The notes below the pieces were generated by a model. The model saw nothing but the letters and a program-made list of their open reading frames with translations, was not told the DNA's origin and did not search any database. The position numbers and the translations under genes were made by a program. Below are positions 1,972 through 40,537 of a stretch of DNA of 60,636 bases, piece after piece. This DNA comes from a virus (lineage: Duplodnaviria; Caudoviricetes). The DNA lies in IMG/VR virus record IMGVR_UViG_3300020580_000015, positions 1 through 60,636 of that record. One strand, 5' to 3'. How positions within the stretch are numbered: position 1 is the stretch's first letter; every line of letters begins with the position of its first letter.

Positions 1972-2477
1972 TAGTCATCATGAAATATTGCGGTAAGTGT
2001 CATGAGCACACGCCGCGCGGGCATCGAGGTAGCTGTAAGCCGTGCAAGAACGCCAGAGCCAGGGTACGTCGTAGTACGCCAGAAGGTAAAGCTGCGGCAT
2101 GTAAATCCTCGACCGATTGGCGACTGAAACACCTGGATCGCGCCAACGCTACGCAGACCGCACGAAGGTCGACTCCGCAAGGTGTAGCAGTCGTGTTGCT
2201 TCAACGCGCCCGCCGTCGCGCCAAGAGCGCAGGTTTACCATTTTCTCTTAGTCTAGATTCGTTGCGACAGAAACTTGAGCGTGGCGTATGCGAGGTATCT
2301 GGACTTCCTTTTGTTTTGACGCCATTTGGCAATCCGCGTCGTCCGTCAATCGACCAGATACGGGCCGGTGAGGGATACACACCACAGAACACCCGCGTAG
2401 TGCTTTGGGGTATCAACGTCGCTTGCCATACCTGGGGACTTGAAGCTATAACTGAAATTTTTAGGAGCGTCCCATGA
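1968..2477 (+). CDS. HNH-like homing endonuclease
   Basis: CxxC pairs, basic helix, CEVSGLPF...PSIDQI...GYTPQNTRVV...N; lower GC. Confidence 0.7.
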   Translation: MIVIMKYCGKCHEHTPRGHRGSCKPCKNARARVRRSTPEGKAAACKSSTDWRLKHLDRANATQTARRSTPQGVAVVLLQRARRRAKSAGLPFSLSLDSLRQKLERGVCEVSGLPFVLTPFGNPRRPSIDQIRAGEGYTPQNTRVVLWGINVACHTWGLEAITEIFRSVP

Positions 2478-3010
2478 AAGCTGTCGGATATGTCCGCGTT
2501 TCCACAGTGGAACAGGCACAGAGCGGTTTAGGGCTGGAGGCGCAGCGCGCCGCTATCACCCGGTGGGCCGCCGAGCGCGGTCTGGAGCTGACCATCTACG
2601 AGGACGCCGGCATTACTGGCACCTCTATGGCGAAGCGACCGGCTCTGGAGCAGGCGTTGTGCGATGCAAAAAAAGGCTCCGTGCTGGTAGCCTACTCCTT
2701 GTCTCGCTTCGCAAGGTCCACCAGGGACATGCTAATCATCGCTGAGCGGCTCAAGCGGCAGGGGGCCGACCTTGTAAGCCTGACGGAAAGCATCGACACC
2801 ACGACTGCCACAGGGCGTCTAGTGTTCACCTTACTGTCCGCCCTGAGCCAGTTTGAACGAGATCTTACGTCTGAAAGAACCCGTGCGGCATTATATGCCC
2901 TGAAGGCGCGCGGGGTGAAGCTGGGGCCGAAGCGGCCGAACCCCACCGCCGGCAACGAGGCCAACCGATTGAAGTGGGAACGGATCCGTGCTAACATGGC
3001 ACCCGCCTGA
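2474..3010 (+). CDS. small serine recombinase (resolvase/invertase family)
   Basis: GYVRVST catalytic Ser, SLSRFARS, IDTTTATGRL, FERDLTSERT. Confidence 0.92.
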   Translation: MKAVGYVRVSTVEQAQSGLGLEAQRAAITRWAAERGLELTIYEDAGITGTSMAKRPALEQALCDAKKGSVLVAYSLSRFARSTRDMLIIAERLKRQGADLVSLTESIDTTTATGRLVFTLLSALSQFERDLTSERTRAALYALKARGVKLGPKRPNPTAGNEANRLKWERIRANMAPA

Positions 3011-5387: not shown

Positions 5388-5661
5388 GAAATTCGAGAGC
5401 TGGCTGTTCCACCGTCTGTTTCCTAAACAGCGCGCCGTCATATTTTATGCGGCAAAGGTCTGTGCTGAGGCGGAGGTGGGTCGTAAGTACCGCAAAATGC
5501 TCTACAGTATGCAGCGCTCCCCGCTCGATGAAAGCGTATGGGTGCGCAAGTTCGTCACCCTCGATGCCGACTACGATAAACTGGAGCAAGAAACGTCCAA
5601 ACTGCGCACGGAGAATCTAGGCTTGAAAACCTCGTTGGCGATTCTACAAGAGCGGAAATGA
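5380..5661 (+). CDS. hypothetical protein
   Basis: GGAG RBS; overlaps neighbours; C-terminal coiled coil. Confidence 0.6.
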   Translation: MLKKFESWLFHRLFPKQRAVIFYAAKVCAEAEVGRKYRKMLYSMQRSPLDESVWVRKFVTLDADYDKLEQETSKLRTENLGLKTSLAILQERK

Positions 5662-6863
5662 GCGGCACGCACTCAATCCTGGCACCGTCCGGCTCGTCGC
5701 GCTGGCTGCGATGCGTCGGCGCGCTGTATCTGTCGCGCGGCGTGCAGGATCCAGACAAGGAACACAGCGCCAGCGGGACGTGCTCGCACTGGCTGCTGCA
5801 GTGGCAGCTTGAGAATCCGACGCTCGACCTGGACAGCTGGCTCGGCAAAGAGCTGACGTTCGGCGACAACCCGCCGTTCAAGTTCAAGATCGACGAGGAG
5901 CGTCTGGACCGCGTCCGCTCGTGCGTCGCCGTGATCAATCGCGAGCCTGGCGATATGCTGGTTGAACACCGGCTCGATACGACGCCGGTCCTGGGCGTGC
6001 CAGATCAGCAAGGGCACAGCGACATCATCAAGCTGTATCCCGAAGGCGGCGCGGTCATCCGCGAGCAGCTGTACAAGGGCGTGCTCAGCGTGCACGACTA
6101 CAAGGACGGGTACCTACTCGTCAACGCAAGGGACAACACGCAGGGTCTGATCTACCTGTGCGCCGCGATGACCGAGTTCAGCATGATCGGCGATTTCAAC
6201 GCGTTCCGATTCTGCATCCACCAGCCAAAGCTACATCACTACGACGAGTGGACCTACACGCGCGCCGAGCTGGAAGCGTTCATGGCGCTGGTGCGGCCGG
6301 TGGCGAAGCTGGCGTACGACATCTATCACGAGAACGTACCGTTCGATCCGGCGGCGCACCTGGTTGCCGGCGAGGAGCAGTGCACCCACTGCCCGGTCCG
6401 CGGCCGCTGCGTCGCGCGTGCGAAGCGCGTCATGAGTATGTTCGAGCCGCTGGTGAAGCGGCACGAGCTGGATGACAAGTCGCTCGGCATCGTGTACGCG
6501 CAGCTCGATGAGATCGAGGCAGCGATCACGGACTTCCGCGCCGAAGCGTTACGCCGTGCGAAGATCGGCGTCATACTCGAAGGTCAGAAACTGATCTACG
6601 GCAACAAGGGCAAGCGTGTGTGGGTCGACAAGGCCAAGGCACAGGCGGCGCTGGAGATGACGCTGGAGCCGGAGAAGCTGTACGAGCCGCGCGAGATCAT
6701 CTCGCCGACGCAAGCGGAAAAGATTTTGAAGAAAGGCTACGAAGCCATCGAAGATCTGGTGACACAGTCGGACCCTCAGCTCCGCCTCGTGCCGCTGGAT
6801 CACAAGGGAGAGGCGGTGACGCCTGTCCAATTTATCCCGACGCAAGAGCCGGGACTGATCTAA
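5658..6863 (+). CDS. DUF2800 PD-(D/E)xK (Cas4-like) nuclease
   Basis: HSILAPSGSSRWLRC, GHSD, DYKDG, NTQ, IHQP, C-x2-CP-x4-C. Confidence 0.85.
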   Translation: MSGTHSILAPSGSSRWLRCVGALYLSRGVQDPDKEHSASGTCSHWLLQWQLENPTLDLDSWLGKELTFGDNPPFKFKIDEERLDRVRSCVAVINREPGDMLVEHRLDTTPVLGVPDQQGHSDIIKLYPEGGAVIREQLYKGVLSVHDYKDGYLLVNARDNTQGLIYLCAAMTEFSMIGDFNAFRFCIHQPKLHHYDEWTYTRAELEAFMALVRPVAKLAYDIYHENVPFDPAAHLVAGEEQCTHCPVRGRCVARAKRVMSMFEPLVKRHELDDKSLGIVYAQLDEIEAAITDFRAEALRRAKIGVILEGQKLIYGNKGKRVWVDKAKAQAALEMTLEPEKLYEPREIISPTQAEKILKKGYEAIEDLVTQSDPQLRLVPLDHKGEAVTPVQFIPTQEPGLI

Positions 6864-6881
6864 AGCAACAGGAGATTGAAA

Positions 6882-7556
6882 ATGTCGAATGAAAATGTAC
6901 TCCGTCAGATAAAGATGGACAACGTGCGGCTTCTGCGCGTGTCGCTTACCAAACAGTACATCGGTAAGGACGCGAAAATCGATCCGACCACGGGCAAGCA
7001 GGAAGGCAAATACCACATCGATGCGGTGTTCGCCCCGACCCATCCGCAGTTCCCCGAGCTGCAGAACCTGATCCGCGGCGTCGCGACGGCGAAGTGGAAA
7101 GAGCAGACGCAGCAGACACTGGACATGATCAAGGGAAACAACCAGCGCTTCCCGCTGCAGCGTGGCGATCAGTACCGACCGGGCAAGCCGGCATACGCGG
7201 GCATGCTGTACATCAGCGCTGGAAATAAGGATCAGCCCACGATCCTCGTGACCGAGAACGGTGTGAACATCGCGAACCGGAACACGCCCGTGATCCTGAC
7301 GCCGAGTCACCCGTGCTACCCGTACGAAGGCTGCTACGCCAACGTGCTGCTGGAGTTCTACACGTACCTGTACGGCAACAGCCCCGGCCTGGGGTGCAGC
7401 GTGCTCGGCGTGCAGTTCAACAAGCACGGTGAGCGGTTGCGCGGCAGCTCGGTGGCGAGCGGCAGCGAGTTCGGATTGGTCCCCGCCGACGCGGACGGCG
7501 CGCCGGCAGGCGCGATTGCTCCGGCCGCGCAGACTGGCGGCGCAGGCTTGATCTAA
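6882..7556 (+). CDS. DUF2815-like ssDNA-binding protein
   Basis: PLQRGD, YEGCYANV, LLGVQF-type GVQFNKHGERL motif; position between DUF2800 and PolA. Confidence 0.8.
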   Translation: MSNENVLRQIKMDNVRLLRVSLTKQYIGKDAKIDPTTGKQEGKYHIDAVFAPTHPQFPELQNLIRGVATAKWKEQTQQTLDMIKGNNQRFPLQRGDQYRPGKPAYAGMLYISAGNKDQPTILVTENGVNIANRNTPVILTPSHPCYPYEGCYANVLLEFYTYLYGNSPGLGCSVLGVQFNKHGERLRGSSVASGSEFGLVPADADGAPAGAIAPAAQTGGAGLI

Positions 7557-15445: not shown

Positions 15446-15835
15446 ATGTCACTGTTTCCTGAAGACGACAAGGGTCGCAAGATGCTCCCCATCTTCGACT
15501 ATTTCACGCGCTATTTCCCCAAGGCGCATCGCGAGGTGACGAAGGTGTGCGTTGTCAACAACGTGCGCTACAATCCCGAGCGGGCGCCGAACGACATCAA
15601 CTGGGCGCGCGGCAAGAGTCCGAACCAACTCGGCAGCGGTTTCCGACACATGCTGGAGTCCGCGGTCGACGGCAAGGTGTTCGAAGCGGTACCGAAGAAC
15701 ATCGCCGAGCTGACCGGCATCGAGAAGGTGTACGTGCTCGCCGAGGCTGCTTGGCGCATTCACGCTGAGCTGGAGCTGACCATCGAGAAAGAGGAAGCGA
15801 AAGTGCCGCCTCAACTCGATTTACGGCACGATTGA
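15446..15835 (+). CDS. dATP/dGTP diphosphohydrolase-like domain (DUF5664-type)
   Basis: RK..P....YFP.A..EV, W.RGKS, RH, AAWR. Confidence 0.7.
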   Translation: MSLFPEDDKGRKMLPIFDYFTRYFPKAHREVTKVCVVNNVRYNPERAPNDINWARGKSPNQLGSGFRHMLESAVDGKVFEAVPKNIAELTGIEKVYVLAEAAWRIHAELELTIEKEEAKVPPQLDLRHD

Positions 15836-15846
15836 GGAGCGCGCCA

Positions 15847-16377
15847 ATGCTGGACAAACTGCTAGAATTTTTATCGAGCATATGGAACGACCTGATTCCT
15901 ATCGCGGTGCTGAACCCGTACACCGGAGGCGTACAGATCCGTTTGGGGAGAACTTTGCGCGTGCTCGGAGGCGGCAACTGGTATTGGAAGATCCCGTTTT
16001 TTGACTACATCCTCCACGACTTCGTGGTGCCGAGAACGGAGCGGCTGACGGGCATGGCGACAACGACAAGCGACGGCAAAGCTATCGGGTTCGATGCGGT
16101 GATCACGTACCGCATCTCCGATGTGGCTAAGGCGCTGCTAGAAGTGCACGACCTGAAGGACGCCATCGCAGACAGCTGCGCCGGCATCATAGGCACCGAG
16201 CTGAATACTCGGTCATGGGCCTCGATTATTCATGGTGACACGGTCGATGAGCTGACCGCGGCGTGCCGCAAGCGTGGGTGGAAGTGGGGAGTTGAGATTC
16301 AGCTGGTGCAGCTGACTGGCGTTGCGCCAGTGAAGAATTTGCGCGTGTCCCTGAGCGGCCACGCGCATGTACCTTGA
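15847..16377 (+). CDS. SPFH/band-7 domain protein
   Basis: GVQIRLG, WKIPFFD, TTSDGK, ITYRISD, WGVEI. Confidence 0.8.
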   Translation: MLDKLLEFLSSIWNDLIPIAVLNPYTGGVQIRLGRTLRVLGGGNWYWKIPFFDYILHDFVVPRTERLTGMATTTSDGKAIGFDAVITYRISDVAKALLEVHDLKDAIADSCAGIIGTELNTRSWASIIHGDTVDELTAACRKRGWKWGVEIQLVQLTGVAPVKNLRVSLSGHAHVP

Positions 16378-16400: not shown

Positions 16401-16430
16401 GGGCGCTTCGGCGCCCTCTTTTTATTTTAT
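16401..16430 (+). terminator. intrinsic terminator at the convergence of the early and late arms
   Basis: gggcgc-TTCG-gcgccc followed by T-rich tract. Confidence 0.8.
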
Positions 16431-17066
16431 GACGTTGACTATTTTGTGCCGATACTGCGTAGTCTGCGCCCGGTGTCTGGCTACAAAATCTTTCATTGTG
16501 ATACGACTACCTGAGACTGGCACCGTGGGTGTGGTCGGCGCTGCGGCGGATGTAACTGGCGCCTGCGCTGGGACTGGCTTCGCATCCATCGCTACAGGTG
16601 GCGGCGGTGTCGATGGCGTTTCATCCACGATGCTGCCGTTCGATACACGCGCGGTCGACATCTTATCGCCGAAATCGTCTTTCGATACCTTCGAGCTGGC
16701 GGGATCGAACATTCGGATCTTGTTGTCGTCGTACGCCAGCACGTAGCTCGGCACCTTCAGCTGCTGGGCGGTGCTGATGTCGTCTTCCGAAAACTGCGTC
16801 GAGCGTTTGCCTGACGGGTGCGAGTGGTAGGTCGAGTCAAGCGACCATCCCTTAGGTATACTCACCGCCGCCGCAAAGTGCGACCCGTCATTCTGACCCA
16901 CCGGCTCGGTTGCCGCGTATATGTTCTGCTCTTTGTTGTATAGCACCCCGCCGCCGCGCTCGAATTTCTTGGTGTCTATACCGCGTAGCGCCGCCGCCGA
17001 CGCCTCTCTGGCCGTCGGATATGTTTGATATGAGTCTGCTAATCTGGACGGTACTGGTTTTGCCAT
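16422..17066 (-). CDS. DUF4329/JAB(MPN)-like metalloprotein with Pro-rich tail
   Basis: FERGG...YHSHPSG...FSEDD (E...HxH...SxxD JAMM-like). Confidence 0.65.
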   Translation of the reverse strand: MAKPVPSRLADSYQTYPTAREASAAALRGIDTKKFERGGGVLYNKEQNIYAATEPVGQNDGSHFAAAVSIPKGWSLDSTYHSHPSGKRSTQFSEDDISTAQQLKVPSYVLAYDDNKIRMFDPASSKVSKDDFGDKMSTARVSNGSIVDETPSTPPPPVAMDAKPVPAQAPVTSAAAPTTPTVPVSGSRITMKDFVARHRAQTTQYRHKIVNVIK

Positions 17067-17067
17067 T

Positions 17068-18627
17068 TTATGTGTAGAAGAACACAGCCGCGCCGTTCTG
17101 TCCGGCGGAACCGTTGCCGTTCAAGTTCACGCCACCGCCGCCCGCCGCACCGTATGGGCTGCCGTCGCTGGCAATGCTTCCACTCGTGCCCGTGGTACCG
17201 CTGCCGGTAGTGTTAGTAGTGTTGCCACCAGACGCTGTGCCGCCGGCTCCTTGAGCCCCGTCCGCTCCTCCCGTGGCATGAATCCCCGGGCCGCCGCCGT
17301 TAGCTGTCATCGTTGTGAAGCCTGTGACCGTCCCCGCTGTGATCGATCCGGCGCCGCCCGCCGTGCCGTCCCCACCGTTGTACGCGCCGCCCGCGCCGCC
17401 TGCCGGGACGGTGTAGTTGAAGGTGCCGCCACCTCCACCCAACGCCGACGCGGCGTATACGCTGTACGAGAAGCCGCTACATCCGCCGGAGCCGCCAGTG
17501 TTGAATCCGCCACCGGTAGCCGCGTGCGCGCCGCCGCCGCCGCCACCCGACCCCCACACCTCCACTTTAACTGTTGTCGTGCCGAGCGGGATAGCGTCTG
17601 AGCCGCTGCCGCTGGTGAAGATGTGGAGCACCGTCAGGCTGGACAGGTTGATGGTGCCACTAGCGACGACAGGCGAGCCGGTGATGCTGGTCGACAGCTG
17701 GTACGTGCCGTTCGCCACACCCTGCGCGGTTGTGGCTATATTAATCCCGCCGCTGGTGATGTTGGTCCACGCACCCTGCGCCGCAGAGAAGTTCACGCCC
17801 GGCGTACCGCCCGTGCGCGTGATGTTGATGAAATAACCGGCGCCGACGTTGGTCGTTGCTGGCGTGAACCAGTTACCAGGCACCGCGGTGCCGCCGGTCG
17901 CTGTCGTGACACCGTTACCGCCAAATGTGACGGAGGTGGCGTTGATAATTTCTCCGAGCGCCGACGGACTCGAAGCGTACGGCGTGAAATTGTTCCCGTG
18001 CCAGATAGGCGTATAGTACTGCACGCCGTCGCAAGTGATAGGCAGCCAGCCGGCCGGCGAACTGGTCGCCGTGCCGGGCTTATTGGTGGCGGTAAACGTC
18101 GCCGTCTGCGCGCCGGTCGTCGCCGAGCTGTTCACGATCAGTGCAGAGTTACCTGGCAGGTTCGAAGATATCTGCAGCGGTGTGGTGCCGAGCGCGCTGG
18201 CGTTCAACGTGAGCGTGACGCCAGAGCCGCCTGTGTTGGGCGGCGGCATGGTGGCTTCGCCTGTAGGCGCGATACGAAAACCAAACGCGGAGAGCGTGGA
18301 GGTGCCCACTGTTGAGAGCTGTGAAGTGTACGGATCAACCTGCCACTGCTGAACGTTTAGTCGGTTGAAGAACTGCACACGATAGATGATCGACGGATCG
18401 AGATAGATAGCAGGGAACCTACCGAAGTTGTCCGATACGACCTTACCCGTCCCGGCCGACGTGAACGGTGTCGTCAACGTACCGTTCTGGTATACGTTGG
18501 TCGGCGTCGAGGTGCCGGACAAAAAGAATAGGTAGTACGAGTTCGCGAACTTCGGTCCAAGGTCCGACTGCGCCTCGCGATACAGCAGCCCTTCGACAGC
18601 TCGGCCCTTTATCGTTGGGTAGCTCAC
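17068..18627 (-). CDS. tail fibre/virion protein with attachment domain and Gly-rich C-terminus
   Basis: SGTSTPTNVYQ...GRFPAIYL...YRVQ; VEVWGSGGGGG Gly-rich domain. Confidence 0.75.
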   Translation of the reverse strand: MSYPTIKGRAVEGLLYREAQSDLGPKFANSYYLFFLSGTSTPTNVYQNGTLTTPFTSAGTGKVVSDNFGRFPAIYLDPSIIYRVQFFNRLNVQQWQVDPYTSQLSTVGTSTLSAFGFRIAPTGEATMPPPNTGGSGVTLTLNASALGTTPLQISSNLPGNSALIVNSSATTGAQTATFTATNKPGTATSSPAGWLPITCDGVQYYTPIWHGNNFTPYASSPSALGEIINATSVTFGGNGVTTATGGTAVPGNWFTPATTNVGAGYFINITRTGGTPGVNFSAAQGAWTNITSGGINIATTAQGVANGTYQLSTSITGSPVVASGTINLSSLTVLHIFTSGSGSDAIPLGTTTVKVEVWGSGGGGGGAHAATGGGFNTGGSGGCSGFSYSVYAASALGGGGGTFNYTVPAGGAGGAYNGGDGTAGGAGSITAGTVTGFTTMTANGGGPGIHATGGADGAQGAGGTASGGNTTNTTGSGTTGTSGSIASDGSPYGAAGGGGVNLNGNGSAGQNGAAVFFYT

Positions 18628-18628
18628 G

Positions 18629-19249
18629 TTACTGCCAGAGCGGAATGTAGTACGTCGCGCCGTCGCAGGTGAGCGGCAGCCACTTCGTAGGTGCGGTCGT
18701 GCCGGCCCCGGGCTTGTTCGTGGCCGCGAACGTCGCGGTCTGCGCTCCTGCGACCACGGTAGTGTTCGCGATAAGTGCCGGCGCGCCAGCGCCAGACCCT
18801 ATCAATTCCAGCGCGGTGCCGCCCGCCCGTGCGTTCAGCGTCAGCGTGATACCTGTGCCACCGAATATCGGGGCGTTGATAGTCATCTCGCCCTGCGCAT
18901 CGAGCACGATTTGCCCGTTGCCGGTGACCGGCATCGACGGCACGTACGGGTCAACGTCTTCGATCAAGCTCCAGGTCGAGCTGTACAGTTGAACCCGGTA
19001 GATAGTCACCGGGTTCAGGAAAATCGGCGGCATCGCGCCCGTGCCATCAGCCTGGACTATTGAGAACAGCGGCGAGGATCCGTTGAGTGCGGCCGCAGGA
19101 TACGGCAACGTGAGTCCAGCGTCCTGGTACACAATCGCCGGGTTCGTCGTGCCGGACACGTAGAAATTATAATACGCGCCGGGCATCGCAACGCCCAGCG
19201 AAGACAGCGGTCGCGCGACCGGATCATAAAACAGTTGACCTGTTGCCAT
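18629..19249 (-). CDS. short paralogue of the fibre N-terminal region
   Basis: SGTTNPAIVYQD...PPIFL...YRVQ; GAQTATF.ATNKPG...WLP.TCDG shared with downstream gene. Confidence 0.75.
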   Translation of the reverse strand: MATGQLFYDPVARPLSSLGVAMPGAYYNFYVSGTTNPAIVYQDAGLTLPYPAAALNGSSPLFSIVQADGTGAMPPIFLNPVTIYRVQLYSSTWSLIEDVDPYVPSMPVTGNGQIVLDAQGEMTINAPIFGGTGITLTLNARAGGTALELIGSGAGAPALIANTTVVAGAQTATFAATNKPGAGTTAPTKWLPLTCDGATYYIPLWQ

Positions 19250-21034
19250 TTACTCTTCGTCCTTTGGTGCGCTCTTACCTGCCGCCCGTCGTTCCTGTCT
19301 GACCTGCTCTAACCGCTCTGCCGCTGAAATGAGGGCAGGTCGGAGAGCTTTTGCAGCAGCCTCGCGCGCTTTGCTTGAACTGGCTGTGTCGGCGCCTTGG
19401 CTCTTCCACTCAGCCATCCGGTCAGCATTTGCTGCAAAGCTTGAGGACTGGAGGAGTCCGCGGTGTTCGCTGGTGCTAAAGAGTTGGTGGAAGTCGGGGG
19501 TACTGCGGATGAGTTCATCTGTGATCGCTCCTTTCTTGACTAAATCGGGAATGCTGATATCGCTGCCTTTCTCTTCAGCGTGCTCGTAGGCGGTCTTCGC
19601 CCACGACCACACGGTCTCTTGCACTTCGGCCGGCGTCCACGTCTCGCCTGTGAGGTGTGAGATCATGCGCGCGGCTTCACGCACCTTCGCGCTCATCGCA
19701 AGGTATGTTGGAGACTTGCCGGGACCGGCGGCATTTAGACTGCCGCTCATTTTTGAACCCTTGGCTGACGGGTCTATCTTGGCGAATGATGCCATCCATG
19801 CATCGTTCGTCACCTCATGCACGTTGTTGGTGAGGTTGTTATAGAAGCTGTGCACCTTAGGTCCAGACAGCTTGATGTTGGTCGGATCATACGCGGTGAG
19901 TGCACGCACGGAGTTGTTCACCCACGCATCGAGCACGTTCGAAGATCCCGGCGCCGCCTTCGCACTCTTCTGCGAACTTTGCTCCATGATGGCGCGAATC
20001 TCTGACGGATCTTCCGGTCGGCCAGCCTTGTCCCAGTTGATGAAGGTCTTCAGCGCGTTCGCGAAGTTGGTCTGCACGCTCACCTGCGGTGACATGGCGG
20101 ACAACAGGCCAGCGAAGCGCGGCGCATCTGGACCGAACTGGTTCACGATGGTCTGCGCGCTGTTCTTGTACCAGCCACGCTTGGCAGCGCCCGCGAGCGC
20201 GGCCGCGGCGTACTCTTTCGTTGCCGGCGCGCTATTGAACGCGTCGATCAATCGTTTCGTGGTGTCGGTTCGCAGCTGCGAGCGTTCTTTGTCGGTCAAC
20301 TGGTTCGTGATGTGGTGCTCGTCCGCACCGACACCTTCCTCAGCCGACTTCACGACGTCCCGCGGCAAGAGACCAGCTTTCTGATCCGCGTAGATCGTGT
20401 CCGCACCCGAGGCGCCTTTGTTGAGCGCGCCCGCTGGCCCCGAGTTAACCCAGGAGTTTTGTCCCAGCGTCTCCGCATCCATTGCGCCACGAGCTTCTGG
20501 AGAATACATCTGACGATGGGCTCGCCAAGCATTATATTCACCGTTCGCTCTGAAGCCGTTCCCTTCCGCAGCGTGACCGTAGTAATCGTGCACCGCTCGG
20601 AAGAGATCGTTGTACGTCGCATCTTTACCGCCCATCTGGATCGGCGCTTTCTCCATCAACGGATGATCGGCCGCAGCGGCATCAGATGAACCGAAGCCAG
20701 CCTCCGTCGGATAGATGCTCATGTGATTGTTGTCGCGAACGTCCGCGTGCATCTCGCGTGGGTTCTTGTACGGGTAGTCGGTGTCGAGACTGGTCTTGAC
20801 GCCGGCCTTCATCATCTGCTTGTACTGCGCCAAGGTCTCTGCCTTGAACGCTGCGTACGACTTCGCGACCTTCGGGTTCGTCGGGTCGTGCTTCATTGCA
20901 TCGTACGCGTCGGCAACATTCTTCGCGACCTTCGGGTCGATGAAGCGATAGGAATCGAGCGGCTTGTAGTCGATGCCGGCGCTCTTGGCGTAGACCGCGG
21001 CCGCTGCGCGTGCTTTGCCATTGGGTCTGTCCCA
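19250..21034 (-). CDS. C-terminal continuation (-1 frame) of the giant ejection protein; zincin-like (HDYYGH) and HhH-glycosylase-like (DUF7178-type) domains
   Basis: Frame is open 46 codons upstream of ATG 20896 with protein-like ARAAAAVYAKSAGIDY; FRAVHDYYGH; GWY...LSAMSPQ...N...GPKVHSFY...D.W...VQETVW. Confidence 0.7.
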   Translation of the reverse strand, partial: WDRPNGKARAAAAVYAKSAGIDYKPLDSYRFIDPKVAKNVADAYDAMKHDPTNPKVAKSYAAFKAETLAQYKQMMKAGVKTSLDTDYPYKNPREMHADVRDNNHMSIYPTEAGFGSSDAAAADHPLMEKAPIQMGGKDATYNDLFRAVHDYYGHAAEGNGFRANGEYNAWRAHRQMYSPEARGAMDAETLGQNSWVNSGPAGALNKGASGADTIYADQKAGLLPRDVVKSAEEGVGADEHHITNQLTDKERSQLRTDTTKRLIDAFNSAPATKEYAAAALAGAAKRGWYKNSAQTIVNQFGPDAPRFAGLLSAMSPQVSVQTNFANALKTFINWDKAGRPEDPSEIRAIMEQSSQKSAKAAPGSSNVLDAWVNNSVRALTAYDPTNIKLSGPKVHSFYNNLTNNVHEVTNDAWMASFAKIDPSAKGSKMSGSLNAAGPGKSPTYLAMSAKVREAARMISHLTGETWTPAEVQETVWSWAKTAYEHAEEKGSDISIPDLVKKGAITDELIRSTPDFHQLFSTSEHRGLLQSSSFAANADRMAEWKSQGADTASSSKAREAAAKALRPALISAAERLEQVRQERRAAGKSAPKDEE

Positions 21035-24000
21035 TCAGTAGGAGCGCCGGCCAGCGGCTTCTCGTTCATGACGCGAACGGAGCCGCGCTGATTCGACGGG
21101 CCGCGGATGCCTACCACACGCTCAGCTTTGTCGCGTAGCTCGGTATCTTTATCCATCATATCCTGATCCGCACCGTTCAGCTTCTCGCTGACGTTCTCAG
21201 AGATATCAAGAATCTTATTCTTGAGCCTTTTACCGATGGAGTTATCGCCTCTGATGCCTAGGAAGCGTTCCACGTTGTCGCGTACGTCGGTGGCTTTATC
21301 CATGACGTCTTGATCGAAGCCGTGAAGACTCTCACCCACATCTTCCATCTTATCGCGTACCTTGTTCGCGACGTCTTTCATTACTTGTACGGATCCACGC
21401 TGTCCCGAAAGTCGGCGCAGAATGTCGTTCTGCTCAGCGGTGAGCGGCTTGCGGCCGCCCATCTGCGCATTGGCAACACGCTCGTTCCGTTCATTGCGGG
21501 GTTCAATTCCAACACCGCGTTGTCGGTCACGAGCTGCAGATGTGGCGTTGTTCAACTCATTGTCGTTTTGAAACGAGAACGAACCGCGCTGTCCCGGGTG
21601 ACCGCGGAACTGTTTGGCGTCGAACTTATCCCAGCCCTGTTCCTTCGCAATAGCTTCGTGACTGGGCGCGACGTGCATGGACTCAACACCGGCATCCGTG
21701 CGCTGCGGGATCGCTGACTGTTTGGTCTTGGCGAGAACCTTCTGCATCTCAGGATCAGACAGCGGCCGGTCGGTGCTTGCCACGAGCGTCGGCTCGGACA
21801 CACCATGTTCTTTCGGTGTGAGAACAGAAGTTTTCGTGGTCTTCGCGCCGGTCGATTCGATGGCACCCTGCGCTTCCTGTTTGCTCATGCTACGGAAACC
21901 GGGCTGGCCTTCCTGTCCCTGGTGCAGGCCGACGTTGAGCGTCGAGCCTTTACCTTTCGGCGGACGCACCTCGAAGACGTGATCGCCGTGCGCCTTCAGT
22001 TCACCTTGAACGTTCTCGTAGGGCTTCGCTTTAACGTCGTAGCCTAGTTTCACGAGATTCTTATAGGCGCCTGCCTGACTCTCGGAAACCTGACTGTCGC
22101 TATGAAACGTCTGCCCGGCCTCGTGTGCGTCATCGACAGCGCGCTGCAGTGTGCGGGTACCCCACCCCTTGCCGCGCTCCGCCGCGGGCTGTGTCGCTCT
22201 ATATGATTTTCTTACGCCCAGCCCAGGTATCTCTCTGACGTCCAACCCGCCACCGTGCGGCGTGCTGTAGCTGTGGTACCGCAAGCCAAGGCTGGGCGCG
22301 TCCTCTACCTCGTGGTTGACAGCATCGCGCTGACTGAGATCTCCTACCGCGCCGCGCTGTTTGCCCGTGCGGTCAACGATGCGCTTCGCCACCGCTTTGT
22401 CGCGAGACGATTCAGATATCTTGCCGCCGAGACCTTCGACACCGCGCTCCATCGCGCGGCCGACCATGCGGCCGACGACCGGGATGTCATGAGCCAGACC
22501 CGAGGCGATGTTGCCGCCGGCTTCGAGGATGTGACCCACCGTTCCGGTGCGCTCGGTCTGAGCCGCGGCACCGGGGTAGTGCTTGTCCATGTGCAGCGTG
22601 TTGCCGGCATCGTTGATCGTCTTTAGGTTATTGAGGACGTCGGGACGATCTTTGAACAGCGCCGGAGCGTTGCGCGCATAGCGGTCCGCTGCGTTGTAAA
22701 ACTTGCGAGCGTTCCAGCTGCCATCGGCGTTCCGCGCAGCGTTGTGCATGCGGCTGATGACGTGCGCTTGTATCTCACGCAGCGCCGCCGCGCTACCTTC
22801 CGCCAGCTCACCGCCACCCAAATGCGCGCCGGCACGCAGCACGTTCAGGACGTGCTCGTGTTGCTCACGCGGCAGGTCGGCGATGTAGTCCATCACCTTG
22901 TGCTCGGGGATCGCATGATTGATGCCCTGGCTGTCAGATGGCGCCAAGAGTTTCTTGATGCCGGTAGGCTCTTCGAGCATCTGCGCGCTGTGACGTCGCA
23001 TCGCACGCGCGGCCTGGAAGAGTCCCGGGCCACCGTGTTCAGCGACGTCCATATCGAGATGGTTCTTCAGATCCTTGGCAACACCCATCGCGTTGGGGTT
23101 GCGACCCTTCTCGTTCAAAAATTCACGCATACGCTCGGCCGCATTCACGCTGCCGGGCGGTGTGCCTTTGTCAGGATCACCGATCGTCCACAATCGCTCC
23201 ATGCGTTGCTTCGCGGCGCGCTGCAGGCCGATCTCCGCATCATTGGTGAAGTTCGAGTCATCGTTCAGATAGTCACTGACCCGCTGCAGCTTAGAGATCG
23301 GTCGGCCCTGGTTCTGCGAGCGGGCGGTGTCGTAGATCTGATCGGTGGCCTTGTCGAACCATCCCTCGATACCCTGGATAGCGTTGCGCGCCACGCGGCC
23401 GCGGTCGCCCAAGGTCTGGCTGTCGACGCTGTTCTCGAATTCTGACCCGATGCTGTTGTGTACGTTCTCGGTAGCAGTGTGCATCGCGGCGTTCTCGCTC
23501 GCGACCTGTTTGCGCATCTGCTCGTTGCCGACTTCCTTCATCTGGAAATCGTCCCCGGTGGCGTTGTAGTCGCCGGTCAGAGCCGAGAGACGGCGGGTAG
23601 GGAGCTGGCCGCCGGACAGCCGGTCAATGGCGTCCAGGTGACCAGCGCGCTCGTTCTGCTGCTCGGGGGCAGGTGTTTCCTTCGGACCTTCCTCAGCTGG
23701 GGAGTTGAAGATCCGCACGGAGCCGCGCTGGCTGTCGAGCGCGTCCAGCGCCCGGTTCGCCGCATGGCGCTCGGCGGGGGTAATTGGGCCGGCAGGAGTC
23801 GCCGGCTGGGCGGCAGTTTCTTGGACGGAGGGTTGGGTCTCGGCTGCCGGCGTCGGCTCAGCGGGCTTCGCAGGAGGCGCAGCAGGGGATCTGCCGTCTT
23901 CGGTGGCTGACCGGTGGAGGGTGCCTTCGGGGGCCGGGATCGGGTTCGGCGCGGCGCGTAGCGTGTCGCCCGTGATAGGTTCGCCGGTTGGCGGCTTCAG

Positions 24001-24732
24001 GGACGGCTCGGGCGTCGGCTCGGGTGCCGTAGCTGAAGCCGCTTCACTGGCGGCGAAGCGCTTGGCAGCGCCCACGCCGGCCTTCATGCCCTTGACCCCG
24101 GCACGCACCGTGCCAGGCGCGCCGAGCGCCGGCAGGTCGGTACCGATGTCCTGGGCCACGTCGCCCACGGCCTGGTAGGCGTTGTCTGGCAGCACCTTGC
24201 CGAGGGTGCTGTCGGACGTTTCCTTGATCAGGTTCGCCGGCAGGCCGGTGAGATCGTTCGAAAACTCAGCGCCGCGCTTCGTGGCCGGCACATAGTTCGC
24301 TAGGTTGTTGACGTTCTTCGCCCACTCACGCCCACGGTCGCGACCGCGCTCAAGCGCTTTGCCGGCGAGGTCTGTGTCTCCTGTGCCTAAAGCCGCTACA
24401 GCGTCCGCTGCGCCGCTCGCCTGACCGGCAATGCTGGCGACGCCCGCTGGAACGGACAGCGCGATGCCGGCCGCAGCTCGCGGTAGACCAGTGAGTTGCG
24501 ACACTGCCTTGCGTGCCGTCGGCTGGTAGTTGCCCTGGTTCACCGGGTTCTTCATGAACTCATCGAGCGCGTACTGGGTAGCCGGATAGGTGCCGGTGGC
24601 TTTCTTGAACAGCTCCTTGGGCTCGGGCATGCCGTCCGTCGGGTCCGCCTGCGCCGCCGGACTCAGGCCGATGGAACTGGGGTCAGGCATGCCGCTGATG
24701 TCTACGTTATCATCGGCCACAGGATCGGCCAT
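20893..24732 (-). CDS. giant internal virion/ejection protein (P22 gp16 position), modular, with GNAT-like domain
   Basis: Third of three ejection-position genes; ERGKGWG acetyl-CoA-binding motif; repeated QRG[SA][VF]. Confidence 0.75.
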   Translation of the reverse strand: MADPVADDNVDISGMPDPSSIGLSPAAQADPTDGMPEPKELFKKATGTYPATQYALDEFMKNPVNQGNYQPTARKAVSQLTGLPRAAAGIALSVPAGVASIAGQASGAADAVAALGTGDTDLAGKALERGRDRGREWAKNVNNLANYVPATKRGAEFSNDLTGLPANLIKETSDSTLGKVLPDNAYQAVGDVAQDIGTDLPALGAPGTVRAGVKGMKAGVGAAKRFAASEAASATAPEPTPEPSLKPPTGEPITGDTLRAAPNPIPAPEGTLHRSATEDGRSPAAPPAKPAEPTPAAETQPSVQETAAQPATPAGPITPAERHAANRALDALDSQRGSVRIFNSPAEEGPKETPAPEQQNERAGHLDAIDRLSGGQLPTRRLSALTGDYNATGDDFQMKEVGNEQMRKQVASENAAMHTATENVHNSIGSEFENSVDSQTLGDRGRVARNAIQGIEGWFDKATDQIYDTARSQNQGRPISKLQRVSDYLNDDSNFTNDAEIGLQRAAKQRMERLWTIGDPDKGTPPGSVNAAERMREFLNEKGRNPNAMGVAKDLKNHLDMDVAEHGGPGLFQAARAMRRHSAQMLEEPTGIKKLLAPSDSQGINHAIPEHKVMDYIADLPREQHEHVLNVLRAGAHLGGGELAEGSAAALREIQAHVISRMHNAARNADGSWNARKFYNAADRYARNAPALFKDRPDVLNNLKTINDAGNTLHMDKHYPGAAAQTERTGTVGHILEAGGNIASGLAHDIPVVGRMVGRAMERGVEGLGGKISESSRDKAVAKRIVDRTGKQRGAVGDLSQRDAVNHEVEDAPSLGLRYHSYSTPHGGGLDVREIPGLGVRKSYRATQPAAERGKGWGTRTLQRAVDDAHEAGQTFHSDSQVSESQAGAYKNLVKLGYDVKAKPYENVQGELKAHGDHVFEVRPPKGKGSTLNVGLHQGQEGQPGFRSMSKQEAQGAIESTGAKTTKTSVLTPKEHGVSEPTLVASTDRPLSDPEMQKVLAKTKQSAIPQRTDAGVESMHVAPSHEAIAKEQGWDKFDAKQFRGHPGQRGSFSFQNDNELNNATSAARDRQRGVGIEPRNERNERVANAQMGGRKPLTAEQNDILRRLSGQRGSVQVMKDVANKVRDKMEDVGESLHGFDQDVMDKATDVRDNVERFLGIRGDNSIGKRLKNKILDISENVSEKLNGADQDMMDKDTELRDKAERVVGIRGPSNQRGSVRVMNEKPLAGAPTDGTDPMAKHAQRPRSTPRAPASTTSRSIPIASSTRRSRRMLPTRTMQ

Positions 24733-26631: not shown

Positions 26632-28431
26632 TTACCAGCCTCCTGTACCGTAATCGCTGCTGAAATCTGTGCCAGATGTATCCGGTATGTTTATATCCGA
26701 CAGACTGCCGGTATCTATCTGTCCAACGTTGATGTTACCTATCCCGTCCGTACTATTAGAGATGTCGCCGGCCGTTGGTCCGTTGTTGGCGTTATATGCA
26801 TTGTACGCGCCGGAGTTGTTCGCGAACGGCGTACCGCCGAATGGGTTATTGCCACTCACTCCAGTAGTGTTTCCGCCGCCTCCACCCGTAAGCGCCCGGC
26901 CAGCTGCGCCGACCAAGCTGGTGCCAGCGCCGTTGACTCCGAAGAGTCCGCCGACCACATTCGCCGCGCCGGACACGCCCGACGCTTGCGCTTGGCCGAT
27001 ATTCTGCTGCAGTTGGCTGATATTCGCACCCGTCTGCAAGTTAGACGTCTGCAGGCCCTGATTTGCCGAAGTACCTAAGCCAGCCGCACCCATCAACTGA
27101 CTTATATAGGTGTTGTAGTCCTGCATGGCGGTGCCGGTCACGTACTGGCCGATGGCCTCTGATGTGTTCGGTGTGTACGCGTTGCCCAACGCCGAAGCCT
27201 GCCGCTGAATAGCTTGCGTGCCCTGGTTCACAGCGAACTGGTAGCCCGGCATGTTCAGGAAGTTGGAGGGATCGGCAGGCTTGCCGCCAAGCCCTAAAGA
27301 AGACTGTAGCGCGGTGTTGGCGCCCTGCCCAGTCTGCTGCTGCGTGTTCCAGATGTTGTTGATGTTACCCATCGTGGACTGCTGCGTATTGATCGCACTG
27401 TTGTCCGCGTTCTGCTGCGCCTGCGCGGCATTCTGTGCGCCGTAGACACCGGCCGCGCCTTGTATCAGGCCGGGAACTGCGCCGCCGATTGTTTGAGCGA
27501 GAGTCGAATCTGTACTAGGTGCGACGTAATTTGCGGAACCAAGTGCATTGTTATTAGACGGCGCTAACGCCATGCCGCTCGATACTGTCGCGCCGTTGAT
27601 GTTGCCGTACGTTTGCGGATTAACTGCTGCCATATTGCCACTGTTCCCTTGTTGCGGACCGCCGCCACCACCGAGCGCGCCGCCTAGATAGTTCGATAAT
27701 TGTGATGCGCCAAAACCAGCGATGGCGCCTGTGAGCGCGCCTCCGCCGAACGCGCTATTCGCGCCGCTCGCCAGCCCCGAGATCCCACCAGACAGTGCGC
27801 CAGTAGAAATATTTCCGCCCGAAAGAGCTGATCCTAAAGCGCCCGTGCCGGCTTTCACCAAGCCACTAGATAGTGTGGAATTTAATCCTGTGGCATCGCT
27901 GACTGCCCCAGTCAATCCATTAGAGGCGGCGCCACCGACCGCGCCCATCGCAGCGCCCTTACCTACGCTACCTAAGGTAAGAGGCGCGCCGGTAAGCGCA
28001 TCTCTAAGTCCAGCTCCCGCCGCTCCAGCTGCGGCGCCGCCAGCGACGGCCCCGCCAAAACCGCCGCCCGCCGCTGCCGCCACGCCTGATCCGATACCTG
28101 CGGTGGCGACACCGAGACTAAGCGCGAGAGCGGCGTTACCAACAATATTGGACAGATAGTCGTCGTGTGAAAATATCTGATTGGAGTAGTTGCTATTGAT
28201 CGCCGCGTCTATTTTCGATTGCAGCGCGGGTGATATGGCGTTGGTTTGTGCCAGATGATTGTACTGATCTAACGTCAAGCCAAACTTAGCCAACAGCGCC
28301 GACTCATCGTCGTTATAATTCTTCGCTGCTTGCGGAGATAGCACCCCGTAATTGTTGTTTTGATTCTTTGAACCGGCTGGAGCCTGCCCCATAGGCGTTC
28401 CGCCATACTGGTTCGGGGTATCATAAGTCAT
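26632..28431 (-). CDS. ejection protein, P22 gp7-like, with long Gly/Ala-rich N-terminal half
   Basis: AAQAQ...PGYQFAVNQG..AI....SA.G...YNTYISQL.G.AGLG. Confidence 0.75.
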   Translation of the reverse strand: MTYDTPNQYGGTPMGQAPAGSKNQNNNYGVLSPQAAKNYNDDESALLAKFGLTLDQYNHLAQTNAISPALQSKIDAAINSNYSNQIFSHDDYLSNIVGNAALALSLGVATAGIGSGVAAAAGGGFGGAVAGGAAAGAAGAGLRDALTGAPLTLGSVGKGAAMGAVGGAASNGLTGAVSDATGLNSTLSSGLVKAGTGALGSALSGGNISTGALSGGISGLASGANSAFGGGALTGAIAGFGASQLSNYLGGALGGGGGPQQGNSGNMAAVNPQTYGNINGATVSSGMALAPSNNNALGSANYVAPSTDSTLAQTIGGAVPGLIQGAAGVYGAQNAAQAQQNADNSAINTQQSTMGNINNIWNTQQQTGQGANTALQSSLGLGGKPADPSNFLNMPGYQFAVNQGTQAIQRQASALGNAYTPNTSEAIGQYVTGTAMQDYNTYISQLMGAAGLGTSANQGLQTSNLQTGANISQLQQNIGQAQASGVSGAANVVGGLFGVNGAGTSLVGAAGRALTGGGGGNTTGVSGNNPFGGTPFANNSGAYNAYNANNGPTAGDISNSTDGIGNINVGQIDTGSLSDINIPDTSGTDFSSDYGTGGW

Positions 28432-38370: not shown

Positions 38371-39147
38371 TTAACCACTCCACACTCCGCCTTGCGTCGC
38401 CATCTCAGGCACCCAGCTGAACCACGGCAAGCCGCCATCGCTCGCGGGCGGCGCCTTCGCCACGTCGTGGCCGCTCATCACGTTGTAGCGTGTGGCGTCC
38501 ATCAAATGGTCGTTCTTTTTTATAATGTTGCCTTTCTCATCGCGACGATACAGGCGCACCTCTTTGAACCAATTAACGCAGGTGCTGAAGATGCGCAGCT
38601 GCTGCGTCGAGAGCATGTCCCAGGTCTGCACCAGCCCGGTCACGACCGTGTTGTCGGCCTTGCTGACCTTCAGCCCGAGGTTGCAGTACGTGTCGATCAG
38701 CAATTCACCGTCGGTGCCGCGCGCTTTCTGCGCCGCAGGGTCTATCACGCCGTGAATCCACGGACCGCGCCGATTGATCGCTGCGACATGTACTGCAGGG
38801 TCGGCTTGACCGCGATAGTACTCGTCGTACATCACCGCCGGGTACCGTTGGTTGCCGGCGGCGTCTTTGAATCCGTTGTCGATGTCCCAAGCGAACCAGC
38901 ACACCGCGGTGCAGTTCCAGCCCGGGTCCATCCCGTACGAGCGCGGCCAGTGGGCCGGGATATCGAACGGCTGGATCGACATCACGCTCTCGGGGATCGG
39001 GTAGATCGCGCCGACGCCGTGCCCGGGTATGCCGGACTTACGTGCTTGGAGCTGCCACGCCGGCACGCTCGACAAGATTTTCTTTTTCTCCGATTCGGTC
39101 AAATGAGCGACATCGTCCATGTCTAAAAAAACGCATGATTTAGACAT
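38371..39147 (-). CDS. terminase large subunit, C-terminal fragment (end of ATPase/hinge plus RNase H nuclease)
   Basis: AHLTE...ARKSGIP..G.G.IYP, GMDPGWN, IDPA, DHLMDATRY. Confidence 0.9.
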   Translation of the reverse strand: MSKSCVFLDMDDVAHLTESEKKKILSSVPAWQLQARKSGIPGHGVGAIYPIPESVMSIQPFDIPAHWPRSYGMDPGWNCTAVCWFAWDIDNGFKDAAGNQRYPAVMYDEYYRGQADPAVHVAAINRRGPWIHGVIDPAAQKARGTDGELLIDTYCNLGLKVSKADNTVVTGLVQTWDMLSTQQLRIFSTCVNWFKEVRLYRRDEKGNIIKKNDHLMDATRYNVMSGHDVAKAPPASDGGLPWFSWVPEMATQGGVWSG

Positions 39148-39648
39148 TTACGCCACCGCGAAGCTGTGTTTCTTGCTGCTATTTTCAGATTTAGATAGCA
39201 GTCGTAGATTTTCTGGCACATGTAGACCGCTGACGCGGGCTCCTTGTAGCGGAATTATATGATCGACAGTTAATCCTGCCGCAACGGCTTGATCGTAAAA
39301 AACCTGAATAGCGTCGAGGTCAGCCCAAGCTACGGTACGCTGAAGCTGCGCGGCGCGTCTCTTAGCCTCGTACGCGTTATAGGCGCCTCTGTGCGAATCC
39401 TTATACACCGCCAGATGTTCTCTGTTGAGCGCTTTCCAATTTTCGGAAGCCGTCAGATCTCTGGTAGGGTCTGTCGCGTATCTATCTCTCCTGCGCTGCT
39501 GTGCGCACTCTATGCAGCGCGATTCTCGGCGCGTAGACGGTTTGCCCTGCGTCGTAGTATACGAATACCAGTAAAAATCTTCTGGAGCTTTACCTTGTCC
39601 GCACATAGTGCACGGCTTGTGCTGTGGTCGTATTTTTACCTCACTCAT
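39148..39648 (-). CDS. HNH homing endonuclease interrupting terL
   Basis: CxxC pairs; TVDHIIPLQG..VSGLHVPENL....ENSSK. Confidence 0.92.
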   Translation of the reverse strand: MSEVKIRPQHKPCTMCGQGKAPEDFYWYSYTTTQGKPSTRRESRCIECAQQRRRDRYATDPTRDLTASENWKALNREHLAVYKDSHRGAYNAYEAKRRAAQLQRTVAWADLDAIQVFYDQAVAAGLTVDHIIPLQGARVSGLHVPENLRLLSKSENSSKKHSFAVA

Positions 39649-40537
39649 CGACGACCGTCTCCTCTTCCAGCTCCCACTGCTCAGTCGGCATCGCGTCTGG
39701 CTCGGGCGACAGCTCGGGCATGAACGTGATCATCAGGTCCGATACGCCCAACAGCGGCGTCTCTGTCAGCACCAGCGTGCCGTTCACTTCGCCGGGCACC
39801 GTGCTCATGAGCCGCATGCCGCACTCGGCGTAAATTTCCAGCTTCGGCTCTTCGTCGAGGTGGATCCTGTCCTGGCGCGTGCCTTGGAAGGCTTCGCGGC
39901 CCTGATCGTACGACTTAAACTGCAGCGTCGAGATGCCGCCGGACACGTGACGCACAAAAACCGACTCGAACGCATCGGCGAGACCGTGTTTCACCGTCCG
40001 CCGCACCAAAAGGTCGCCAGGAATCATCCCGGTGCCGTACGCGGACTCAACGCCGGGCTTACCGCACATCTTTTCTTGTAAAATGTCGCGCGTGTTCTTC
40101 GCGGTATCGGTCGCCAACCACATATCGATGGGTCGGTCGTATCTTCGTCCCGGCCACCAGTCAGGGTACAGCCCGGTAAGGTGCAGCGCATCCGCAAAAC
40201 AGCCGCAGTGCGTCTTACCAGTTCTGTTTCCACCGAAAAGTGCAATTTCATCGTCCTTCGCTTCTGAGGCGAAGAACTGCATCTGCTTCGGATAGTGCGC
40301 CCGACCGAGCGGGCAGTTTTTCAGCGCCGGATGGTCAGTCGGATCCTGAAACCAGGTCACTATTTGGGTCTGATCCTGGATTTTCGCTCGCTGGCTCAGG
40401 ATCTGGATCAGTTTCGTTGTCTCTGCCAGACTCAACGAGCTGATATTCTGCTTCGATAACAGACTCGTCAGCTGTGTCGGCAGCGGCGAGTAAACCCTGT
40501 CGATTAAATCTCGATAGGATTGTGGAAAGTTGCGCAT
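39641..40537 (-). CDS. terminase large subunit, N-terminal ATPase fragment (P22 gp2-like)
   Basis: YPKQ, GGNRTGKT (Walker A), FKSYDQGREAFQG, LDEE (Walker B), TETPLLG. Confidence 0.92.
   Translation of the reverse strand: MRNFPQSYRDLIDRVYSPLPTQLTSLLSKQNISSLSLAETTKLIQILSQRAKIQDQTQIVTWFQDPTDHPALKNCPLGRAHYPKQMQFFASEAKDDEIALFGGNRTGKTHCGCFADALHLTGLYPDWWPGRRYDRPIDMWLATDTAKNTRDILQEKMCGKPGVESAYGTGMIPGDLLVRRTVKHGLADAFESVFVRHVSGGISTLQFKSYDQGREAFQGTRQDRIHLDEEPKLEIYAECGMRLMSTVPGEVNGTLVLTETPLLGVSDLMITFMPELSPEPDAMPTEQWELEEETVVDE

Follow-up and report, generated by a model that had tools for sequence, protein, structure and literature searches.

A conserved QRG junction motif at the cassette borders of a predicted polyvalent ejection-type phage protein

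The QRG motif and the modules of a split minus-strand gene

We analyzed the virus record IMGVR_UViG_3300020580_000015 (Duplodnaviria; Caudoviricetes) over its entire length of 60,636 bases, referred to below as the window, and addressed a long minus-strand gene that occupies two open reading frames (ORFs). ORF A (20893–24732; 1279 residues) represents the N-terminal ~70%, and ORF B (19250–20896; 548 residues) the true C-terminal module, of what is, judging from sequence, a polyvalent internal or ejection-type protein of ~1,830 residues from a soil podophage with a P22-like portal. The tripeptide QRG occurs six times in ORF A, at residues 335, 792, 1048, 1071, 1111, and 1215, and we showed that the extended motif built around it marks the junctions of cassettes, is under selection at the protein level, and is a site at which cassettes have been exchanged. 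Five of the copies were located at junctions between modules, as the original prediction had stated for the motif in general; the exception was the copy at residue 1071 (RDRQRGVGIEP), which is lineage-specific, lies within a short spacer module, and marks no junction. The positions of the motif, their nucleotide coordinates, and the codon differences among the copies were exactly as that prediction had listed them, with Gly codons GGC, GGC, GGT, GGT, GGA, and GGC, in order, followed by TCC, GCG, and TCG in the first three copies and by TCC in the last two. Compared with the 0.45 copies expected from composition, six were observed; none of 20,000 residue shuffles produced at least six QRG, and none of 20,000 produced at least five QRG[SA][VF] (maximum 1). 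QRG[SA][VF] was confined to ORF A when the window was scanned in all six frames, and in the window together with 15 related-phage loci (L001–L015) all 38 matches to the extended motif fell in the orthologous ORF.

The modules are described here from the N-terminus, and all of them are on the minus strand. The N-terminal region with its Pro/Ala-rich linker (residues 1–334; 23731–24732) is followed by junction 1 (QRGSVRIFN; residues 335–343; 23704–23730), a member of repeat family D1 whose C-terminal half forms the N-terminal arm of the helical core. This core (residues 344–791; 22360–23703) is common to ~370 proteins, including motif-less relatives of ~700 residues, and is separated by junction 2 (QRGAVGDL; residues 792–799; 22336–22359) from a module at residues 800–924 (21961–22335) in which we found the GNAT acetyltransferase fold and an acetyl-CoA loop of the R/Q-x-x-G-x-G/A type, as anticipated by the earlier description of this module as GNAT-like. 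An alpha/beta domain with no assigned function (residues 930–1032; 21637–21945), also present in the motif-less proteins P0103–P0119, precedes junction 3 (QRGSFSFQ; residues 1048–1055; 21568–21591), and the short spacer module beyond it (residues 1056–1110; 21403–21567) holds the internal, non-junction QRGV (21511–21522). Junction 4 (QRGSVQVMK; residues 1111–1119; 21376–21402) leads into an internally duplicated helical module (residues 1120–1214; 21091–21375), which ends at junction 5 (QRGSVRVMN; residues 1215–1223; 21064–21090).

An AlphaFold2 (AF2) model of residues 300–1239, built from a 101-row alignment, reached a mean predicted local distance difference test (pLDDT) score of 80.5 and comprised the helical core (model residues 46–485), the second alpha/beta domain (631–733), and helical hairpins. 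The motif copies started at model residues 36, 493, 749, 772, 812, and 916, and all six fell in stretches scoring below 60, either under 50 or as a drop between confidently predicted domains (block means 54 and 59). The linker at residues 300–330 scored below 50, as did junction 3 (model residues 750–760), and the block with a mean of 59 at junction 2 was flanked by blocks of 91 and 84. Because all copies lay in low-confidence stretches between confident domains, the motifs are not inside folded domains, a location that the original prediction had named as fatal to its proposal. The residues following the motif were polar or linker-like, in agreement with its remark that no prepilin-like hydrophobic helix is present; in type IV prepilin-like leader sites, the Gly is followed by a hydrophobic helix.

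The reading frame is broken at 21031–21033, ~20 codons past junction 5, where a run of three G is found instead of the four in L001 and where an extra in-frame ACT lies just upstream. The last ~48 residues of ORF A (20893–21030) form an out-of-frame tail, and the ATG of ORF B overlaps the stop codon of ORF A. ORF B is contiguous with ORF A in relatives, and it is 94% identical (515/548) to residues 1104–1651 of homologue P0002, in which both parts form one protein. As the tail is out of frame and ORF B continues the protein, the module after the last motif is the one containing DUF7178 (residues 203–431 of ORF B; Pfam E 9.7e-11). The original prediction had placed a zincin/glycosylase module after residue 1215 within ORF A, which was not supported: only ~20 linker residues and the out-of-frame tail follow there, and nothing folded. 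The Pfam scan of ORF B returned DUF7178 alone, with no zincin, glycosylase, or protease, and a Foldseek search against the PDB gave a best E of 0.26 with an AF2 model so poor (mean pLDDT 57.7) that this search cannot exclude a zincin or glycosylase; in Atlas, ORF B led to DUF7178 clusters alone, at 0.84, below lead level. The frameshift is unlikely to stem from an assembly error, because another assembly of the probable source run gave the segment 20700–21400 unchanged (word depth 15.6), though from the same reads and therefore not independently. A relative's contig from another sequencing run carries four G at the break site, in a comparison made on contigs rather than reads and in which runs X2–X4 represent partial, diverged relatives, whose uncovered parts carry no information. 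The split at the junction linker appears to be tolerated, and the G-run could be a hot spot of mutation or could act as a switch that fuses the C-terminal module. An apparent out-of-frame tail was also seen in the same linker of P0013.

Conservation of the motif and exchange of cassettes

A word-indexed search recovered 75 homologues of 759–2074 residues, and an exhaustive search with residues 300–1279 recovered 427 proteins at E ≤0.001, the best 150 of which were used. At least two QRG were present in 69 of 76 close sequences, compared with 0.2–0.6 expected per protein, and QRG[SAG][VFPAIT] occurred 308 times in 212 proteins compared with 7.0 expected. The fraction of motif-bearing proteins varied with length, from 8/64 at 600–800 residues through 23/29 at 1000–1300 residues to 38/38 above 1600 residues; the short relatives consisted of the N-terminal region and the core and nothing more. 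These counts agreed with the earlier claim that the motif is conserved at the protein level, and the QRG enrichment, for which a check in homologues had been suggested, was family-wide and coincided with module swapping and with domain boundaries.

The logo of 248 distinct 27-mers read [G/D/S]-[K/G/S]-Q-R-G-S(0.69)/A(0.19)-V(0.70)-[R/Q/G]-[V/L]-[F/M/L]-N(0.52), with Gly at 0.05 in the position after QRG. Its information peaked at QRG-S-V-x-[VL]-[FM]-N, and the flanks contributed less than 0.6 bit. In the family-wide count, QRG was followed by GP in 41 copies. When copies were anchored on the downstream half, QR preceded 161 of 184, ER nine, and MR five. In distant lineages, with cores only 30–40% identical, QRG was retained and was followed by GPKF or AVGDL. 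The junction consensus is thus a peptide of 9–11 residues, [G/D/S]-[K/G/S]-Q-R-G-[S/A/G]-[V/F/P]-x-[V/L]-[M/F]-N, which lies in a disordered linker at every cassette border. In a literature search, we found no account of this junction motif, of its cassette grammar, or of a family ending in DUF7178, and no use of the term DUF7178; supplements were outside that search, and the architecture files of PMC5512222 might list related proteins. Polyvalent proteins and their predicted processing are already known, and the junction motif and the cassette grammar are apparently new.

To describe the grammar, every protein was cut after QRG and the pieces were clustered. The resulting order was N-terminus, core, GNAT-containing cassette, short spacers, optional cassettes, and terminal module. 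From junction 1 to junction 2, the core measured 456–459 residues in nearly all proteins, and the cassettes flanking it differed. This core is shared with a large family of ~700-residue phage proteins, some of which are fused to cell-wall hydrolases; by fold, it matched 46 viral proteins in BFVD at E ≤0.001 (best 1.6e-18), several of which bear the labels LT_GEWL, SLT, Peptidase M15B, or "large polyvalent protein associated domain". A sequence-profile search of the PDB with the core found no relative, and Foldseek against the PDB returned only spurious helical rows for it; in a further structural search, the GNAT domain filled the matches listed, so that the core and the second alpha/beta domain were barely probed against the PDB. 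The homologues contained ART-PolyVal, Zeta_toxin, GNAT, and GP88 domains, as well as ParB according to precomputed labels; ART-PolyVal was present in P0046 and P0059 and absent from the window protein, and no MPTase was found in the 11 homologues scanned. At least two unrelated domains of different biochemistry were found in one polypeptide, which is characteristic of polyvalent proteins. The terminal module was either ~605 residues long with DUF7178 or ~510 residues long with a C-terminal part that resembles it by eye. P0018, P0021, P0028, P0087, and the terminal modules of ~510 residues, in proteins that differ widely in cassette content, shared the C-terminal tail ...PKEMWQRIVKRLAK, which may be a common C-terminal signal.

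The positions at which similarity began and ended pointed to the motif as the site of exchange. Among 9,793 internal BLAST alignment ends, a count that includes related sequences and hence events that are not independent, 27.0% lay within 10 residues of a motif compared with 5.0% of random positions, and 39.9% lay within 20 residues compared with 10.0%. Module identities to P0001 were also uncorrelated in rank (core vs module m1, rho 0.10, n = 25; m1 vs m2, rho 0.02, n = 14). For example, P0002 was 93% identical to P0001 in the core, 68% in m1, and 94% in the C-terminal module; P0007 was 71% identical in the core and 89% in m1, and P0032 was 61% identical in the core and 89% in a spacer. The major capsid protein was 92–100% identical among the 12 loci, out of 14, in which it is covered, compared with 50–74% for the polyvalent gene. 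The suggestion that the motif serves as a module-exchange junction was thus supported both by the enrichment of breakpoints at it and by the discordant identities of the modules on its two sides.

Processing at the junctions and competing explanations

We proposed, with a probability of roughly 50%, that the split gene encodes a polyvalent ejection-type protein whose junction motif serves cassette exchange and, presumably, processing as well. The protein would consist of an N-terminal region and a 457-residue helical core followed by a train of accessory cassettes, namely a GNAT acetyltransferase with the alpha/beta domain, short helical spacers, and a terminal DUF7178 module. The conserved coding sequence of the motif (CAGCGCGGCTCCGT...) would provide the microhomology for cassette exchange, and the peptide that it encodes would act as a processing signal, at which a protease separates the cassettes in the capsid or after ejection. 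The candidate scissile bonds are R|G, G|S, and S|V, and the cutting activity might come from a host enzyme, from an unrecognised phage enzyme, or from the core itself. The processing component was proposed because the motif is found at every border and at borders only, because it forms an island of conservation in disordered linkers, because its center is an Arg-Gly-small residue sequence, and because processing of polyvalent proteins has been predicted (PMC5512222). A short conserved site in an exposed linker at every domain border, as expected of a polyprotein, was indeed what we observed. A QRG junction is a plausible protease site, and given that the motif is a junction element, we consider the odds that it is also a processing site to be about even.

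Several results weighed against processing. No peptidase family was detected among the 52 window ORFs searched with Pfam and the 17 searched with PHROGs, with ~25 small ORFs outside these scans, except for a weak JAB/DUF4329 match; nor was a peptidase domain detected in the target protein or in the 11 homologues scanned. The weak match concerned a 214-residue protein, encoded by the last gene of the structural operon (16422–17066, minus strand), with DUF4329 at 27.9 bits (cut-off 28.6) and Prok-JAB. The gene was found in one of the five related records searched and, within the downstream flanks covered, only in L004 (G003) and L011. We rejected it as the dedicated junction protease and regard it as an accessory gene, because two 100%-complete relatives lack it even though the motif is present in their proteins. 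No prohead protease matched among the structural genes, and no maturation protease is known from P22-type heads. Furthermore, conservation was located mostly C-terminal of QRG, which at junction 1 is the docked core arm, so that a docking or structural role fits this side as well as cleavage does. Ser after QRG was replaced by Ala or Gly in approximately one quarter of the copies, and the breakpoint and codon counts share the dependence among related sequences noted above.

The Ala and Gly variants bear on the mechanism as well. In SEA-type autoproteolysis, a G|S bond within a G/SVVV motif is cut with Ser as the nucleophile. A universal Ser-driven self-cleavage of this kind is excluded here, because the residue after QRG is not Ser at every site. 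A complex prediction for the arm-less core (residues 355–789) and the junction-5 peptide (residues 1200–1239), run without controls, scored 0.01 compared with a mark of 0.32 and speaks neither for nor against binding.

A stronger form of the processing proposal, which we regard as a tentative but serious possibility, is that this group of phages with P22-like portals makes a true polyprotein. According to this explanation, a dedicated, unrecognised protease activity would cut the QRG junctions of a single ejected precursor and thereby free a swappable set of effectors directed against the host, among them an acetyltransferase, an ADP-ribosyltransferase, and a Zeta-like kinase, and the junction would double as a connector for swapping effectors between phages. 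The QRG-cutting activity could reside in the conserved helical core, in which a groove holds the residues after junction 1, or in a host enzyme. RNA-virus polyproteins and polyubiquitin precursors provide a parallel, with a short conserved site between all units and small residues beside Gly, and RG-[G/S/A] resembles the ...RGG end of ubiquitin-like proteins. However, no conserved cognate protease or deubiquitinase was detected among the window ORFs scanned, the folds of the units are unrelated to one another, and their cleavage is a proposal.

A close likeness is to the polyvalent proteins described by Iyer, Burroughs, Anand, de Souza, and Aravind (2017, PMC5512222), for which processing into separate domains was predicted. 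As in those proteins, unrelated enzymatic domains (GNAT here; ART-PolyVal, Zeta-like, and ParB-like in homologues) are joined in a very large phage protein, for which entry into the host together with the DNA is predicted. In the accessible text of that paper, processing is ascribed to peptidase domains embedded in the protein (zincin-like, assemblin-like, or other), and no site motif is named; in contrast, our protein has no detectable peptidase domain and carries a defined junction peptide at every cassette border. DdrB of phage P1, as cited there, is likewise packaged in the head (a prediction in our case) and proteolytically processed (a proposal in our case), but its single processing event is ascribed to its own C-terminal metallopeptidase domain, and the portion of the source describing it gives no repeated motif.

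A simpler alternative is that the junction peptide serves purely as a recombination joint and harmless flexible linker, that its short homology permits exchange between co-infecting relatives, and that the protein works uncut. The enrichment of breakpoints at the motif, the mosaic identities of the modules, and the search of the window ORFs that confirmed no protease candidate are all compatible with this explanation, as is the codon usage of the motif. In 33 copies from the window and 14 loci, CGC was used at a frequency of 0.85 (0.47 in the genome), GGC at 0.85 (0.55), and TCC at 0.67 (0.15), and no serine codon was AGY. The motif thus tends toward CAG CGC GGC TCC; the three QRGSV copies were the top direct-repeat family in the 16–25 kb region, over 27 nucleotides, in which the other two copies showed 74% and 81% identity to the reference copy. 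This homogeneity would fit copies of common descent that were kept similar by recombination and by selection on the peptide. However, the Val and Arg codons that follow CAG CGC GGC TCC were degenerate, varying freely at synonymous sites with constant residues; fourteen conserved bases offer little homology; and QRG was kept in proteins whose cores are 30–40% identical, a distance at which DNA homology has long decayed. From the focus of the logo, this free codon variation, and the persistence of the motif at such distances, we concluded that the motif is selected as a peptide and not merely as DNA, and we consider an uncut recombination joint unlikely.

The peptide could instead be a docking motif, in which the V-R-[VL]-[MF]-N-x-P half copies the core arm and tethers the cassettes to the core, to a neighboring subunit, or to a common partner in the virion or the host, in aid of packing or ordered ejection. 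In its favor, in the model at junction 1 the residues past QRGS (VRIFNSPAEEG) form a coil with a pLDDT of ~94 that is packed as an arm on the core. Motif-less relatives have comparable arms, such as PRFTPPDQEG, and under a loose pattern an arm-like sequence was present in 27 of the 46 alignment rows without [QEM]RG. Because arms also occur in motif-less relatives, the core arm may be the origin of the hydrophobic half seen in the common motif variant. Tandem double copies in several proteins (for example QRGSVRVMNAPGEES...ARLFTSPKKEG) and the mostly C-terminal conservation would also suit docking. On the other hand, the invariant part of the motif is QRG with the following small residue rather than the hydrophobic half, the QRG-GPKF and QRG-AVGDL forms of other lineages are unlike the arm, and docking leaves unexplained why all borders, and borders alone, need a tether; we therefore regard it as doubtful.

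It is very improbable that the repeats are DNA sites for the small serine recombinase of the phage (Resolvase family, 2474–3010, plus strand, E 3.7e-42), which would delete or swap cassettes by site-specific recombination: the gene is conserved in three of three near-complete relatives (50–86% identity) and the motif DNA is a direct-repeat family, but the copies are only 74–81% identical over 27 nucleotides with no dyad symmetry by eye, conservation tracks the amino acids, and no joints were found in the contigs compared over 20700–21400.

Polyvalent phage proteins are believed to bring several counter-defence enzymes into the host together. A junction peptide of ~10 residues that is present in hundreds of copies makes the separation and exchange of their domains accessible to simple experiments and provides a handle for finding cassette trains in metagenomes. 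Cleavage at the peptide would imply a site-specific protease not yet known and would make the junction a natural modular linker; an uncut peptide would still be a clear example of a connector, encoded within the protein, around which an arms-race gene shuffles its domains.

Gene neighborhood and other features of the record

In the window and in 14 related loci, gene order placed ORF A between the head-completion and the tail-fibre genes. The genes for the portal (phrog_156, E 4.6e-121), the scaffolding protein, the major head protein, the head-closure protein Hc3, and a lysozyme are located upstream on the same strand; the best database relatives of the portal are ~34% identical, and some are labelled "phage P22 like portal protein". 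Two genes upstream of ORF A, a 599-residue protein matched phrog_598, "DNA ejection", and a 632-residue upstream protein gave an Atlas lead to the P22 Inj_translocase (score 0.92, a lead only); a PDB sequence search with these two neighbors returned no match. A phage-encoded gene adjoining virion genes, as is typical of polyvalent proteins, was thus observed, and ORF A, in a genome with a P22-like portal, occupies the usual position of ejection proteins, as the original prediction had assumed. The target protein matched no Pfam or PHROG family, including the sequence families of P22 and T7 ejection proteins, and a phage collection yielded no DNA match and only two weak protein matches, both to the core. 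We therefore predicted an internal virion or ejection placement from the position of the gene and from the fold of the core.

The gene shares its position after the head-completion genes and its mosaic domain swapping with the T7 gp16-type ejection proteins of podophages, as far as these are described in the accessible text of a review (PMC8954989), and its core fold is common to phage proteins labelled LT_GEWL, SLT, or Peptidase M15B. It differs from the P22 and T7 proteins in the absence of a sequence-family match and in its cargo, a multi-cassette train of cytoplasmic-type enzymes. Another very large polyvalent protein from a podophage of ~60 kb is phi24B gp47, a virion protein of 2811 residues that is a proposed ejection protein (bioRxiv 10.64898/2026.04.10.717836); it contains LPD domains and a MuF-C metallopeptidase, unlike ours, and the accessible part of that preprint mentions no repeated junction motif.

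Several minor features were also recorded. In the 599-residue "DNA ejection" protein (26632–28431, minus strand), conservation among relatives was limited to residues ~300–507, and the N-terminal half was replaced. Downstream of ORF A, paralogous genes of 206 and 519 residues (17068–19249, minus strand; loci L001–L012), which by position alone are taken to be tail fibres, had a common N-terminal part that was 40–46% identical. The segment at residues 253–329 of the 519-residue protein had two or three further copies downstream in relatives, and the two genes with these repeated segments look like a set of alternative tail-fibre ends. The large terminase (38371–40537, minus strand) is encoded in separate ORFs, namely a 298-residue Terminase_6N ORF, a 166-residue ORF, and a 258-residue nuclease part. 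This split was rejected as a mark of poor assembly and is conserved, because the N-terminal ORF is also 306–319 residues long in three of three relatives. Elsewhere in the window, we noted genes for a YspA-related SLOG protein (1221–1583, plus strand), a DUF2800/PD-(D/E)XK nuclease (5658–7556, plus strand) that adjoins an Enc34-type single-stranded DNA-binding protein, an SPFH/Band 7 protein (15832–16377, plus strand), and an endonuclease VII (49080–49448, minus strand).

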